Source: Bacteroidota bacterium
Lineage (GTDB): Bacteria; Bacteroidota; Bacteroidia; UKL13-3
Length of the DNA stretch: 64,000 nt
Direction of reading: 5' to 3'
NCBI GenBank assembly: GCA_027482225.1
Contig: JAIXWD010000014.1
Span: forward strand, 74,719-138,718
Shown: piece by piece, positions 25,322 to 35,178 of the stretch
How the letters are laid out: every line of letters begins with the position of its first letter
Numbering within the stretch: position 1 is the first letter of the stretch
Position numbers and translations under genes: made by a program
Notes under the pieces: generated by a model
Told to the model about the DNA's origin: nothing
Databases searched by the model: none
What the model saw: the letters and a program-made list of their open reading frames with translations, nothing else

Positions 25322-25328
25322 TATTTAG

Positions 25329-25402
25329 TGGGCCCACCTGGAATCGAACCAGGCACCTACTGATTATGAGTCAGTTGCTCTAACCGAATGAGCTATAGGC
25401 CC
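25329..25402 (-). tRNA. tRNA-Met (anticodon CAT). Could be an elongator or a lysidine-modified Ile2 type
   Basis: Manual fold. Acceptor GGGCCUA/UGGGCCC, D-arm AGCUCAUUCGGUUAGAGC, anticodon loop cuCAUaa, T-arm CCUGGUUCGAUUCCAGG, discriminator A. 74 nt, no encoded CCA. Confidence 0.9.
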
Positions 25403-31160: not shown

Positions 31161-31540
31161 GTTTAGTGATTTACAATAAAAATAAAAATGTTGGAGCGAT
31201 AATAGTTTTGGGGCTTACCATAAAGCACACACAACACAAGCAAAACACAAAAATTATAGCCGAATATAGTTTCAAAATATTAGCCTTATTACAATATCAT
31301 ATAAATTTTAGTAAGTTTGAGTTTCGCTAACAAGCAAGTTAACATCATTTAGAAAGAAAGATATTTTTTCAAAATAGTTGAATGAGCCTTTCAATTATGT
31401 CAGAATAAAAATTACGCTACCATAATACATCATAACTAAAACTAAGCGATAAGTTTACACCTGAAAAATGGTTTCTTGCTTAAATTCTTTTAGCATGTAT
31501 GATATTAAAAAATCTTAAGAGTAAAAACCTCAAAAAACAA

Positions 31541-32821
31541 ATGAAAAAAAATATACTAATTGGAATAATGTTAATTATAGGACTCTATTCCTTAAACGTT
31601 AATGCGCAATCAAACAAGTGTGCAACTATGCAACATCTTCAAAAGAGTCTCACTAAAGACCCTACTTTAAAACTTAGAATGATTGAAAGCGAAAAAGCAA
31701 TAAACCAATGGATTTCAAATCATGCACGAAATAAGAAATCGAATCGTGGAGTAATAGTTATCCCTACAGTTGTTCATGTAATTTGGAAAGAGACAATTGA
31801 AAACGTGAATGATGACCAAATTTTATCTCAAATTAAAGTCTTGAATGAGGACTTTAGATTAATGAACGCTGATAGTTTAAACGACAAACATCCATTTTGG
31901 CCATTTACAATTGATGCGGATATTGAATTTTGTCTTGCAAAACAAGACCCTAATGGAAATCCTACAAATGGCATTACAAGAACGCAAACAACAGTAACCG
32001 CGTGGGATGATAACAATTCAGATAATATTAAATCCACTGCTAATGGTGGTCGAGATAATTGGGATCCAACAAAGTACCTAAATATTTATGTAGTAAACCT
32101 TGATGGAACGACTTTAGGTTTTGCTACATTTCCAGACGAACTCACAACTCAACCCAATTTAGATGGAGTAGTAATTCGATATGAAGCATTTGGTACAGAA
32201 GGAACAGCAGGATCAGGGAATTTTCCTTCAAATGATGGAGGTAGAACCGGAACCCATGAAGTAGGGCATTGGCTCAACCTCAGACATATTTGGGCCGACA
32301 CGATATGTGGTAATGACTTTGTAGCAGATACTGAACCAGCAGAAGAAGCAAATTATGAATGTCCTACATTTCCTCATAAACCAAACAATAAATGCGGTTC
32401 AGGCTCAAACGGTGAAATGTACATGAATTACATGGACTATGTTGATGATAAATGCATGCACATGTTTACAGCAGGACAATCAGACAGAATGCATGCGGCT
32501 TTAAATGGACCTCGTTCTTTACTAATTACTTCAAATGGTTGTCAATTACCAACTACTTTAAATGAATTAAATTTTTTAAACTCAGTTGCTATATATCCTA
32601 ATCCTAATAATGGACAATTTACTTTGTCAATAAATTTAAAAAATAATAGTGTTGTAAGTGCATCATTAATCAATTTAGTTGGAGTAACCGTTAAAGAATT
32701 TGGTATTATTTCAGGAGAGATATCAAATATTGACGTTACTAATTTTTCAACAGGGGCTTATTATTTAAAAGTAAGTAATTCAACAACATCAATAATAAAA
32801 AAAGTTTTTATTACTAAATAA
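31541..32821 (+). CDS. Secreted zinc metalloprotease, M43 (cytophagalysin/pappalysin-like) family with T9SS C-terminal sorting domain
   Basis: Signal peptide MKKNILIGIMLIIGLYSLNVNAQ. Extended zinc motif HEVGHWLNLRH. C-terminal IYPNPNNGQFTLS…GAYYLKVSNSTTSIIKKVFITK. Confidence 0.8.
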   Translation: MKKNILIGIMLIIGLYSLNVNAQSNKCATMQHLQKSLTKDPTLKLRMIESEKAINQWISNHARNKKSNRGVIVIPTVVHVIWKETIENVNDDQILSQIKVLNEDFRLMNADSLNDKHPFWPFTIDADIEFCLAKQDPNGNPTNGITRTQTTVTAWDDNNSDNIKSTANGGRDNWDPTKYLNIYVVNLDGTTLGFATFPDELTTQPNLDGVVIRYEAFGTEGTAGSGNFPSNDGGRTGTHEVGHWLNLRHIWADTICGNDFVADTEPAEEANYECPTFPHKPNNKCGSGSNGEMYMNYMDYVDDKCMHMFTAGQSDRMHAALNGPRSLLITSNGCQLPTTLNELNFLNSVAIYPNPNNGQFTLSINLKNNSVVSASLINLVGVTVKEFGIISGEISNIDVTNFSTGAYYLKVSNSTTSIIKKVFITK

Positions 32822-32871
32822 CAATAGATAGAAGCGGGGCTTGGCTCCCGCTTCTATCCATAACAGAAATT

Positions 32872-33267
32872 ATGAATAAATTATTTATAGGAGTTTTATT
32901 GAGTTTATTCTTTTCTTGTAAAGGAACAAAGACCATTACCCATGATGAAAATAATCAAAAAAAAGAGCATTCATCGGATAATATTTATCGCTTTAATATT
33001 TCATTTATCAGTATTGGTTCCGGGATAGATGGTAAAGCAAGACAAGATTTTTTAAACTTTATTAGCGAATATGAGACCAAAAATAATATTCAACTTGAAA
33101 TGGAAACAGTTAAATGGGGTCGAGAAGGAGAAACAGACTATTGTACAAAATTGTCTCAATTAAATTCAGACGAGCAAGTTAAATTTATTTCATCTATCAA
33201 AGAATTAACAAAAACATCTAAACTTGTTCGCTATTCCGAAAACACAACATGTAAAAAAAGAAACTAA
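32872..33267 (+). CDS. Hypothetical lipoprotein (131 aa)
   Basis: Lipobox LFFSCKG. No recognisable domain. Confidence 0.5.
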   Translation: MNKLFIGVLLSLFFSCKGTKTITHDENNQKKEHSSDNIYRFNISFISIGSGIDGKARQDFLNFISEYETKNNIQLEMETVKWGREGETDYCTKLSQLNSDEQVKFISSIKELTKTSKLVRYSENTTCKKRN

Positions 33268-33459
33268 CAAGATTTTTGACGAAAGCTAACTTGATGCTAA
33301 CAGACTTTTAACTCAAGTAGCGAAAAGTGATTTCCCATTCAAGTAGTTATCTTTAACTTGGCTTAACTAAATTCACTTCGCATTAACCACCTTTGGCAAA
33401 CGAGCGTTATATAAGTAGTATTTATGTTTGAAATAATAAATGTAAACTCATAATTAATT

Positions 33460-35178
33460 ATGATTAATAAAAATTTAATTGAAATCTCGATTGCAACAAG
33501 TATCGATAGGCAGAAAATTTATCAACTACGCCACGAAGTATATGCCTTAGAGTTAATGCAGCACCCACATAACGATAGAATGATGATTGAAGATAAGCTA
33601 GATGACTTCAACACATATATTATTGCCAAAATAAATACAGAAATAGTTGGTTTCATTAGTATTACTCCACCTAATAAAAACGATTATTCTATCGATAAAT
33701 ATTTCACTCGAATGGAAATTCCTTTCGCAGTAGATTTAGGAACATACGAAATACGATTATTAACAGTACTCAAAGAATTTCGAGGTAAGCATATAGCATT
33801 AGCTCTCATGTGGGCCGCTTTTCGATTAATTCAGTCTTTAGGTGGTATAAATATTATGGCCATAGGGCGATCTGAGGTGTTGGACTTGTATTTAAAATTA
33901 GGATTTAAGGCTACGAATAAGGAAGTTAAAGCTGGTGAAGTTTCGTTTACACTAATCCATGCAAATGTGAGGGAATTGAATGATTTCATTGAAAATAATT
34001 TCAAAAACACCTTCACCAAAATAAAAAAGCAATGTGACTGGAAATTGGCAATAGATTTTTTTAAACCTGCTAATTGCTATCATGGAGGTGCTTTTTTTGA
34101 TGCCATTGGAAACGAATTTGATGACCTCAATAGAAGAAAAAATATAATTAATGCTGACGTATTAGATGCTTGGTTTGATCCTGCTCCAAAGTTAATTTCA
34201 GAAATAGAAAATCAATTATCATGGATTTGTAAAACTTCTCCTCCAACTGATTGTACTGGTATGTCCAATGGCATAGCCAAATCACGAGGGCTAAAATCCT
34301 GTAACGTTCTTCCAGGTGCTGGCTCTTCTGATTTAATTTTTCTTGCTTTTAGAGAGTGGTTATTGCCAGAATCACATGTATTGATTCTTGATCCAACTTA
34401 TGGTGAATATGTCCATGTTCTAGAAAATATTATTGGATGTAAGGTTGATCGCATCAACTTGCTAAAAGCCAATAATTATATATTGGATCTAGAAAAGCTT
34501 ATAGACCTAGCAAAAAATAATTACGACTTAATTGTCATTGTTAATCCAAATAGCCCTACAGGTCAGCATATTCCGAGGATTAAACTCGAGAATGCTTTAA
34601 GCCAAATCAGCCCTACTACTCGTATTTGGATAGATGAAACCTATATCGAATATTGTGGTAGAGATCAATCTTTAGAGAAATATGCTGTTAGTACAAGTAA
34701 TGTTATTGTTTGTAAATCGATGTCTAAGGTATATGCATTAAGCGGACTTCGCTCTGCATATTTATGTGCCTCTCCTTTTCAACTTGAAAAATTAAGGTCT
34801 ATATCTCCTCCATGGGCAGTAAGTCTTCCATCTCAAATTGCAGCATTGATTGCATTAAAAGAGGATAGTTATTATGAAAAATGCTATGAGCAGACCCACA
34901 TACTGAGAGAAGAGTTCTGTAGAGAATTGCTGAAATTTAACTCTTTTGAGGTTTTACAAAGTAAAGCCAATTTTGTGCTATGTTTTCTCCCTGAAAATGG
35001 GCCTAGCGCTGAAACTGTTGTTTCTAAATGCAAGGAAATGGGACTATTTATAAGGGATGTATCAAATATGGGAAATAATTTTAATAAACATACAATCAGA
35101 ATTGCGATTAAAGATAAAGAAACAAATCAAAAGATGATAGAAATTATTAAGCAAGTGCTAGATGATCAAAGAAAATAA
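33460..35178 (+). CDS. Fusion protein. N-terminal GNAT-like acyltransferase (N-acyl amino acid synthase / LuxI-like fold) fused to a C-terminal class I/II PLP aminotransferase (HisC/CobD-like)
   Basis: N-domain of about 180 aa with LRHEVYALEL…FISI…RGKHIALALM. C-domain with a PLP-lysine context SMSKVYALSGLRSAY and NPNSPTG, typical of histidinol-phosphate aminotransferase / threonine-phosphate decarboxylase. Continuous ORF of 572 aa. Confidence 0.7.
   Translation: MINKNLIEISIATSIDRQKIYQLRHEVYALELMQHPHNDRMMIEDKLDDFNTYIIAKINTEIVGFISITPPNKNDYSIDKYFTRMEIPFAVDLGTYEIRLLTVLKEFRGKHIALALMWAAFRLIQSLGGINIMAIGRSEVLDLYLKLGFKATNKEVKAGEVSFTLIHANVRELNDFIENNFKNTFTKIKKQCDWKLAIDFFKPANCYHGGAFFDAIGNEFDDLNRRKNIINADVLDAWFDPAPKLISEIENQLSWICKTSPPTDCTGMSNGIAKSRGLKSCNVLPGAGSSDLIFLAFREWLLPESHVLILDPTYGEYVHVLENIIGCKVDRINLLKANNYILDLEKLIDLAKNNYDLIVIVNPNSPTGQHIPRIKLENALSQISPTTRIWIDETYIEYCGRDQSLEKYAVSTSNVIVCKSMSKVYALSGLRSAYLCASPFQLEKLRSISPPWAVSLPSQIAALIALKEDSYYEKCYEQTHILREEFCRELLKFNSFEVLQSKANFVLCFLPENGPSAETVVSKCKEMGLFIRDVSNMGNNFNKHTIRIAIKDKETNQKMIEIIKQVLDDQRK

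Follow-up and report, generated by a model that had tools for sequence, protein, structure and literature searches.

The window analyzed here is a stretch of 64,000 nucleotides from a Bacteroidota bacterium (GTDB lineage Bacteria; Bacteroidota; Bacteroidia; UKL13-3; GenBank assembly GCA_027482225.1, contig JAIXWD010000014.1, positions 74,719 to 138,718 of the forward strand). Near its middle lies a gene that encodes, in a single polypeptide, an N-terminal GNAT acyltransferase (residues ~5-190) followed by a pyridoxal 5'-phosphate (PLP)-dependent enzyme of the HisC/CobD type (residues ~195-572). On sequence grounds, this fusion is a genuine and widely distributed family of predicted bifunctional enzymes. 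The gene and its parts, in coordinates of the window, are as follows.

33460-35178, plus strand: GNAT-PLP fusion gene, a complete and uninterrupted open reading frame (ORF) with an ATG start, 572 amino acids and a stop codon.
33472-34029, plus strand: GNAT acyltransferase domain of the LuxI/FeeM N-acyl-synthase type, assigned from Pfam, AlphaFold2, Foldseek and conservation.
34030-34239, plus strand: helical linker and N-terminal arm of the PLP domain (residues ~191-260), assigned from invariant columns.
34042-35175, plus strand: fold-type I PLP domain of the HisC/CobD subfamily (residues ~195-572), assigned from Pfam, NCBIfam, Foldseek and alignment.

An earlier reading of the bare sequence, referred to below as the original prediction, had described this ORF as an acyl-transferring, FeeM/LuxI-like GNAT domain of ~180 amino acids joined to a HisC/CobD-like PLP enzyme of ~390 amino acids. 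Translation and Pfam bear out the ORF and the domain sizes, and Pfam, NCBIfam, PDB matches and Foldseek bear out the fusion itself. The peptides that had been quoted are all present in the 572-residue translation (LRHEVYALEL at 23-32, FISI at 65-68, RGKHIALALM at 108-117), and SMSKVYALSGLRSAY corresponds to residues 420-434, which include the PLP lysine K423 (nucleotides 34726-34728). The domain search that had been proposed returned significant matches to both Aminotran_1_2 and Acetyltransf_1, with Acetyltransf_5 just over its cut-off and FeeM under its cut-off.

A defect that the original prediction had named as grounds for refutation, an assembly chimera or a frameshift near position 34000, was looked for and not found. 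A search of a collection of 5.8 billion proteins returned, among the best 120 matches examined, almost exclusively full-length (561-653 amino acids), collinear relatives with 51-99% identity, along with a few shorter proteins (418-547 amino acids). The AlphaFold2 model of the full-length protein (pLDDT 91.3, pTM 0.80) places the two domains confidently as a single unit, and the GC content of the gene (0.32-0.35) is in line with that of the adjacent genes. The collinear relatives, the single confident model and the matching GC content together rule out a chimera or frameshift. In an alignment of 64 members of the family, about 100 columns are invariant, and they are distributed over both halves of the protein and the linker.

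In the N-terminal domain, Acetyltransf_1 (PF00583) matches residues 35-149 (E value 2e-9, 38 bits against a cut-off of 20.7), Acetyltransf_10 and Acetyltransf_7 match as well, and Acetyltransf_5 (PF13444) scores 23.1 bits against a cut-off of 22.4. Among the 64 members, Acetyltransf_1 matches 63, Acetyltransf_5 matches 44 and FeeM matches 42 (the latter two at E values of 0.01 or below). Acetyltransf_1 is thus the strongest and most consistent match, as would be expected if the domain were an ordinary acetyl coenzyme A (acetyl-CoA)-dependent N-acetyltransferase whose product would be a small soluble compound, an N-acetylated amine such as a compatible solute or a detoxified product, instead of a lipid. 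The same reading could draw on a search of PDB sequences with a profile of the GNAT domain, in which the only match was a weak one to the motif-A region of N-acetyltransferases, and on the partial retention of the motif R-G-K-x-I-A. We nevertheless regard it as quite improbable. FeeM and Acetyltransf_5 match about two-thirds of the members, some relatives clear the FeeM cut-off with 30-36 bits, and a homologous domain from Bacillaceae, described below, clears the cut-offs of both PF13444 and FeeM. Across the family, the CoA-pyrophosphate motif R-x-x-G-x-A has no constant residue at its glycine position, which would fit relatives that use acyl-acyl carrier protein (acyl-ACP) better than acetyl-CoA enzymes. 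The neighbors and fusion partners of the domain are lipid acyltransferases, fatty acid synthesis (FAS) genes and CdsA, and its fold is nearer to that of LuxI-family enzymes, which handle acyl chains.

This last point comes from an AlphaFold2 model of the GNAT domain alone (pLDDT 92), which has the GNAT fold and matches hundreds of GNAT structures. The top ranks of a Foldseek search against the PDB are occupied by the acyl-homoserine lactone (AHL) synthases BjaI, RpaI, MesI, TofI and LasI (E values of 1e-10 to 2e-7, query-normalized TM-scores [TMq] of 0.70-0.74), compared with TMq values of 0.53-0.64 for ordinary acetyltransferases and 0.60 for FeeM. We aligned LasI (sequence validated against 1ro5), TofI and BjaI with the family and took as the LuxI signature the nine positions that are identical in the three synthases, namely R23, F27, W33, D44, D47, R70, E101, S103 and R104 of LasI. 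The window protein has R24, Y28, D45, D48 and E97 at five of these positions, so that the arginine, the F/Y, the D-x-x-D and the glutamate of strand beta4 are shared. The other four carry different invariant residues (W33 replaced by Q34, R70 by S67, S103 by R99 and R104 by L/I100). Because five signature residues are kept and four are replaced, the GNAT domain is predicted to be built on the LuxI/FeeM structural plan and not to be an AHL synthase. That the protein might be a LuxI-like quorum-signal synthase that uses S-adenosylmethionine, with a PLP domain that modifies the homoserine-derived moiety, would accord with the top structural matches, with the five shared positions and with the weak matches of Autoind_synth (PF00765) to 5 of the 64 members (best E value 3e-5). 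It is scarcely credible in view of the four replacements, the lack of any Autoind_synth match at an E value of 1 or below for the window protein, the absence of LuxR-type genes from the neighbor families and the consideration that one free alpha-amine could hardly serve PLP chemistry and N-acylation at once. LuxI enzymes also differ from the window protein in not being fused to PLP domains.

About 25 residues of the GNAT domain are invariant in the family, the glutamate at the catalytic position among them; they include E31, Q34, D48, N51, S77, D79, E97 (nucleotides 33748-33750), R99 and R108. E97 stands at the start of strand beta4, the site of the catalytic glutamate in EsaI, LasI and FeeM. 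Family-level Pfam matches suggest that the domain may belong to the same GNAT branch as FeeM and other N-acyl amino acid synthases and as OlsB/OlsF-type enzymes, with the window protein itself just over the Acetyltransf_5 cut-off and under that of FeeM. Unlike the window fusion, those enzymes acylate ready-made amino acids and have no amine-forming domain.

In the C-terminal domain, Aminotran_1_2 (PF00155) matches residues 268-563 (E value 1.7e-32, 113.5 bits against a cut-off of 19.7). The NCBIfam models for HisC (TIGR01141) and CobD (TIGR01140) score 186 and 165.5 bits, under their equivalog cut-offs of 276.55 and 290.55, respectively. The best matches among PDB sequences are the decarboxylase SMUL_1544 (6oux), several HisC entries and Salmonella CobD. 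When the full model was used as the Foldseek query, only its C-terminal half was matched, HisC and CobD structures fitted equally well (target-normalized TM-scores [TMt] of 0.84-0.91), and no PDB entry spanned both domains. Sequences of Salmonella CobD and Escherichia coli HisC, validated against 1lc5 and 1fg3, were aligned with the family and gave the following correspondences.

K423 (CobD K216, HisC K214): Schiff-base lysine, invariant in the 64 sequences.
D392 (CobD D185, HisC D184): conserved aspartate to the pyridine nitrogen, invariant in the 64 sequences.
R431 (CobD R224, HisC R222): conserved arginine to the PLP phosphate, invariant in the 64 sequences.
Y317 (the Y of PxF/YxxY in CobD and HisC): conserved tyrosine.
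R532 and R547 (CobD R323 and R337, HisC R322 and R335): arginine pair common to both enzymes.
Y395 (CobD F188, HisC Y187): HisC-like.
S365, nucleotides 34552-34554 (N157 in both CobD and HisC): replaces the asparagine of NPNNPTG.
H208-G-G (CobD H8-G-G, absent in HisC): CobD-like arm.
ADVLDAWF (at the place of NANE.P in HisC): family-specific motif.

The invariant residues of the linker and arm are W194, H208-G209-G210 (nucleotides 34081-34089) and D233/D236-A-W238, the last as part of the strongly conserved ADVLDAWF. The HGG follows a tyrosine or phenylalanine (Y207), and the HisC arm motif Y20 ... NANE.P is not matched. The domain therefore resembles HisC and CobD/SMUL_1544 in fold, in PLP-binding residues and in the arginine pair, and it differs from them in its scores, in Ser365 in place of Asn157, in its combination of a CobD-like HGG, its own ADVLDAWF and a HisC-like Tyr395, and in being always preceded by a GNAT domain. 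Judged from these residues, it looks like a catalytically competent PLP enzyme of a distinct subfamily. The pair R532/R547, whose counterparts hold the substrate phosphate in HisC and CobD, presumably marks the substrate-phosphate site, and the domain probably binds a phosphorylated substrate.

Two reactions, a transamination and a decarboxylation, come into question for the formation of the amine. If the PLP domain acted as a decarboxylase in the manner of CobD, its substrate would be O-phospho-L-serine (or threonine or homoserine phosphate) and its product ethanolamine phosphate (or an aminopropanol phosphate), which would then be N-acylated to lipids of the N-acyl-ethanolamine-phosphate type by the same bifunctional logic. 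SMUL_1544, the best PDB sequence match, is serine/threonine-phosphate decarboxylase-like, the highest TMt values (0.90-0.91) belong to Salmonella CobD, the invariant H208-G-G aligns with a CobD motif that HisC lacks, and serine-phosphate decarboxylation has a precedent in Cj1436 (PMC11800397). We consider this reaction unlikely, since the HisC model outscores the CobD model (both under their cut-offs), Y395 matches HisC where CobD has Phe, and N-acyl-ethanolamine phosphate would offer no free hydroxyl to the PlsY and PlsC paralogues described below, would be an implausible substrate for CdsA and would be a poorer fit to the conserved neighbors. A cobalamin context of the CobD type was not seen either, as no cob genes occurred among the neighbor families of 77 loci or beside the window gene.

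The fusion is not confined to the Bacteroidota. In a scan of one genome per species, at least 562 genomes from eight or more phyla were found to encode a collinear relative with 48-99% identity. The best 80 loci, which were inspected, all align with the query from about residue 1-16 to about residue 559-572 and come from Bacteroidota, many Verrucomicrobiota, Acidobacteriota, Planctomycetota, Nitrospirota, Gemmatimonadota, Myxococcota and others. Freshwater Bacteroidota metagenome-assembled genomes hold the nearest relatives (84% and 80% identity), and eight Streptomyces plasmids carry the fusion as well; the copy of strain NBC_00842 is 42% identical over its full length (E value 5e-174). Most of the members found belong to the Verrucomicrobiota, Acidobacteriota and Planctomycetota, so the original suggestion of a signaling lipid of Bacteroidetes was framed too narrowly. 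No paper on a HisC-type GNAT fusion was found in a literature search.

It had also been suggested that the fusion be surveyed against stand-alone homologs. The fusion proved widespread, and no close stand-alone relatives of the GNAT domain were found: a word-index search returned fragments of the fusion only, and when 1.84 billion cluster representatives (50% identity level) were searched exhaustively with a profile, at E values of 1e-3 or below, the outcome was mostly fusions and fragments, with nearly all of the top 150 of 1026 matching clusters being the GNAT-PLP fusion or pieces of it. One metagenomic protein of 469 amino acids (P0210) carries a PlsC acyltransferase with an intact HX4D motif (NHVSHLD), followed by the same GNAT subfamily without a PLP domain; its layout of an O-acyltransferase plus an N-acyltransferase is like that of OlsF. 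Another protein (P0309) has a class III aminotransferase followed by the same GNAT domain and may be a gene-calling artifact. Apparently separate GNAT and PLP genes occur in two long-read metagenome assemblies (L087 and L085). The split in L087 is probably a frameshift error, because other genes of that locus, RtcB among them, are also split, and the version in L085 is ambiguous.

We next consider the neighborhoods of the 80 loci, in which ORFs were called, 977 neighbor ORFs were clustered all-against-all and recurrent clusters were annotated. There is no universal partner gene, as no neighbor cluster occurs in more than 14 loci. The commonest immediate neighbors are lipid enzymes, usually on the same strand and within 50 nucleotides, at loci from Verrucomicrobiota, Planctomycetota and Acidobacteriota. 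FabD lies 10 nucleotides upstream of the fusion in a Verrucomicrobial cluster that also contains FabG, FabA, two ketosynthases and PlsC, and B12-binding radical-SAM proteins with DUF4070 stand on the same strand within about two genes of the fusion in about ten loci. Other neighbors are PlsC alone, Aas-like PlsC-AMP-binding proteins and, in Acidobacteriaceae, a CarF/PEDS1-like lipid desaturase; regulators of the MarR and GntR types are found repeatedly as well. When the Pfam families of 131 immediate neighbors were compared with those of 105 genes four positions away, radical-SAM/DUF4070 proteins were counted 7 times against 0 and FabD 5 times against 0; PlsC and AMP-binding proteins turn up in both groups, since the clusters reach to that distance. 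In the Verrucomicrobial cluster (L029 553-17248; also L033, L061, L038 and L040), which surrounds the fusion, one of the two ketosynthases is part of a 1262-amino-acid fusion with a B12-radical-SAM protein, and an AAT/Ntn-type acyltransferase with TPR repeats and a polysaccharide deacetylase are encoded as well. This cluster looks like an uncharacterized lipid biosynthetic cluster.

On three Streptomyces plasmids, a paralogue of CdsA (CTP_transf_1) stands directly downstream of the fusion and overlaps it by 4 nucleotides, although the regions around the pair are otherwise unrelated. CdsA is the phosphatidate cytidylyltransferase, and PlsY, which is met below, is the glycerol 3-phosphate acyltransferase.

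L090 7989-10567, annotated plasmid: Streptomyces fusion-CdsA pair.
L091 5995-8558, annotated plasmid: Streptomyces fusion-CdsA pair.
L092 5989-8570, annotated plasmid: Streptomyces fusion-CdsA pair.

RefSeq names the Streptomyces fusion "histidinol-phosphate transaminase" and attaches a histidine-biosynthesis GO term to it. Taken literally, the database names of the relatives would make the protein the histidinol-phosphate aminotransferase of the cell with a regulatory or noncatalytic GNAT appendage, and HisC is indeed the best NCBIfam model. Such an identity is very improbable, given a score far under the equivalog cut-off, the replacement of the HisC N-terminal motif by ADVLDAWF and HGG, the conservation of the GNAT residues up to the catalytic-position glutamate, the complete absence of his operon contexts from 77 loci, and the occurrence of the fusion as an accessory gene beside CdsA on Streptomyces plasmids. 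The label is probably a misannotation.

A second fusion with the same kind of GNAT domain is found in the Bacillaceae. Plasmids of Bacillus toyonensis and Cytobacillus spongiae encode a protein of ~530 amino acids in which a GNAT domain homologous to that of the window is followed by a class V aminotransferase (PF00266). The more than 4000 members of this family bear no more specific annotation than "aminotransferase class V-fold" or "GNAT family." When the profiles of the two GNAT domains were compared with hhalign, the result was 99.4% probability, an E value of 6e-21 and 28% identity over 158 columns, and the motifs E-x-x-Q-H, (F/E)-N-T-Y, (Y/F)-S-(I/L)-D and E-I-R-L-L are common to both. 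The gene lies in an operon that comprises a PlsY paralogue, the fusion and an LtaS-like gene, on plasmids and on the chromosomes of Virgibacillus and Cytobacillus firmus, and in part in Planococcus.

L088 4402-6539: Bacillaceae PlsY-fusion-LtaS-like operon.
L089 4396-8446: Bacillaceae PlsY-fusion-LtaS-like operon.
L094 3441-7455: Bacillaceae PlsY-fusion-LtaS-like operon.
L096 3419-7427: Bacillaceae PlsY-fusion-LtaS-like operon.

The N-acyl serinol synthase of the hm-NAS type reportedly consists of an aminotransferase domain and an NAS domain. A single nas gene of Gemella haemolysans leads to N-oleoyl serinol in E. coli, and the hm-NAS genes of Desulfitobacterium hafniense DP7 and Bacillus sp. 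2_A_57_CT2 lead to N-palmitoyl serinol. A paper that cites Cohen et al. 2017 (Nature) invokes both acyltransferase and aminotransferase functions in palmitoyl-serinol synthesis. The window fusion is like the Bacillaceae proteins, and reportedly the hm-NAS proteins, in joining an N-terminal NAS-type GNAT domain to a fold-type I PLP aminotransferase in one polypeptide; moreover, paralogues of lipid enzymes adjoin the Bacillaceae fusion, and one hm-NAS gene suffices for N-acyl serinol production in E. coli. It differs from the Bacillaceae proteins in its PLP domain, which is of the HisC/CobD class I/II type (PF00155) and not of class V, and in its partners, which are CdsA, PlsC or none in the window-type family and PlsY with an LtaS-like gene in Bacillaceae. 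Judged by these domain assignments, the two fusions arose with non-orthologous aminotransferases. Single hm-NAS genes already yield N-acyl serinols, and with the two-domain layout reported for hm-NAS the architecture would have a characterized analogue, although with another class of aminotransferase; it is therefore less novel than had first been claimed.

The joining of one GNAT domain to two non-orthologous aminotransferases speaks for a PLP domain that delivers the amine for acylation by the GNAT domain. We therefore lean, at slightly better than even confidence, toward reading the fusion family as N-acyl synthases that form their own amine and whose products are N-acyl amino-alcohol (phosphate) lipids. 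The logic of making an amine and then N-acylating it, which the original prediction had put forward, is backed by the Bacillaceae proteins and by the lipid-enzyme neighbors of other lineages, its restriction to signaling in Bacteroidetes excepted, and the family is best read as a variant of the hm-NAS N-acyl serinol synthases with a different aminotransferase module and lineage-specific partners.

In a first step, the PLP domain would make a primary amine that carries a phosphate ester, most likely (S)-serinol phosphate from dihydroxyacetone phosphate (DHAP) and glutamate; the chemistry would be the same as that of HisC on imidazole-acetol phosphate, a 3-substituted DHAP. In a second step, the GNAT domain would move a fatty acyl group from acyl-ACP or acyl-CoA onto the amine, with the invariant E97 as general base. 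The resulting N-acyl amino-alcohol phosphate would be a counterpart of lysophosphatidic acid with an amide linkage. In a third step, which would depend on the lineage, the product would be dephosphorylated to a free N-acyl serinol-type lipid or handed over to the adjacent PlsY, PlsC or CdsA paralogues. These partners are paralogous to enzymes whose substrates are glycerol 3-phosphate, lysophosphatidic acid and phosphatidic acid, which argues for a product that is similarly built, with a three-carbon backbone, a phosphate and a free hydroxyl. N-acyl-serinol phosphate would fit because of this backbone, because the keto substrate of HisC is a 3-substituted DHAP and because the arginine pair is retained; serinol phosphate as the specific amine is put forward only tentatively. 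Since no partner genes are present in the window, the end product in this genome is likely a free or phosphorylated N-acyl amino alcohol.

Precedents for both candidate PLP reactions are known from Campylobacter jejuni, where Cj1437 converts DHAP to (S)-serinol phosphate, Cj1436 converts L-serine phosphate to ethanolamine phosphate, and the phosphorylated amine is amidated first and dephosphorylated afterward (PMC11800397). The precedent concerns the reactions; the C. jejuni enzymes are separate proteins and belong to capsule synthesis, where ATP activates a sugar acid as the acyl partner.

Several observations weigh against an amine-forming N-acyl synthase of this kind. Neither sequence nor fold separates transamination from decarboxylation, as HisC and CobD match equally, and the signals of the arm and active site are mixed, with a CobD-like HGG and a HisC-like Y395. 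S365 stands where an asparagine normally hydrogen-bonds O3' of PLP, and it is serine in all 64 aligned members; the Streptomyces relative keeps the asparagine. The strongest GNAT match of the window protein is the generic Acetyltransf_1, its FeeM (PF21926) score falls under the cut-off (22.9 against 27 bits), and the LuxI signature is kept at only five of nine positions. The majority of the 77 loci have no lipid neighbor, and no homologue of any lipid partner gene was found in the 64-kb window. Finally, the membership of the hm-NAS genes in the Bacillaceae GNAT-class V family is a presumption from the species names.

A bolder extension, which we think rather improbable, is that the family catalyzes the first step of a parallel route to phospholipids, in which serinol phosphate (2-amino-2-deoxyglycerol phosphate) would take the place of glycerol 3-phosphate as the foundation. 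O-acylation by dedicated PlsY/PlsC paralogues and CDP-activation by dedicated CdsA paralogues would then lead to amide-linked "aza-phosphatidic acid" membrane lipids. If so, such lipids would occur in Bacteroidota, Verrucomicrobiota, Acidobacteriota, Planctomycetota and Streptomyces, and in Bacillaceae via the class V analogue, and the free N-acyl serinols of heterologous hosts would be only a dephosphorylated side product.

In the window, the fusion gene is flanked by housekeeping genes. Upstream are FtsH, a protease of ~440 amino acids and a small lipoprotein gene, and downstream are thiamine diphosphokinase, an ORF of 100 amino acids and ORFs of 369 and 344 amino acids that resemble RecF and pyruvate dehydrogenase E1 alpha, respectively; apart from thiamine diphosphokinase, these names were read from the translations. 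Three features lie upstream of the fusion.

32824-32861: 15-bp GC-rich hairpin in the 50-nucleotide gap between the protease gene (stop at 32821) and the lipoprotein gene (32872), with no T-run on the plus strand.
32872-33267: small lipoprotein gene, 131 amino acids, downstream of the protease gene (stop at 32821).
33423-33430, plus strand: candidate Bacteroidota-type -7 promoter box, TAtgTTTG, 30 nucleotides before the ATG, found by eye.

The original prediction had suggested that the lipoprotein gene is coregulated with the fusion and had pointed to short direct repeats between them. The lipoprotein gene instead goes with the protease gene: the two form a conserved pair (window 31499-33267; L006 10080-11722) with 72% and 70% identity to L006, a locus whose fusion is 80% identical, and there the pair lies downstream of the fusion, on the other side than in the window. 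On account of this placement and of the strong hairpin between protease and lipoprotein genes, the proposed coregulation is rejected as unsupported. The repeats exist, with TCAAGTAG at 33313 and 33339, at a frequency expected by chance, as the window holds 3 copies against 1.56 expected and 15 of 100 shuffled sequences reach 3. The Bacteroidetes promoter consensus is TAnnTTTG, and the TAtgTTTG box could be the promoter of the fusion gene itself; a sigma-70 scan is uninformative for this phylum. Rfam and tRNA scans gave nothing relevant near the fusion gene, and the sole Rfam/ARAGORN match in the 64-kb window is a tRNA-Met (CAT) at 25328-25402 on the minus strand.

If the proposed activity is correct, one gene would be enough to make N-acyl amino-alcohol lipids in the carriers of the fusion, which comprise at least 562 species genomes and span eight or more phyla, and many freshwater, marine and soil bacteria would have this capacity. 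The known lipids of this class, the N-acyl serinols, target human GPR119 and change the metabolism of the host. The current label "histidinol-phosphate transaminase" and its histidine-biosynthesis GO term would then mislead metabolic reconstructions. The occurrence of one GNAT domain on two unrelated aminotransferase classes clearly illustrates how a two-step pathway can be reinvented in modular fashion, and the linkage to PlsY, PlsC and CdsA paralogues provides a testable lead to a phospholipid with an amide backbone that may not have been described before.

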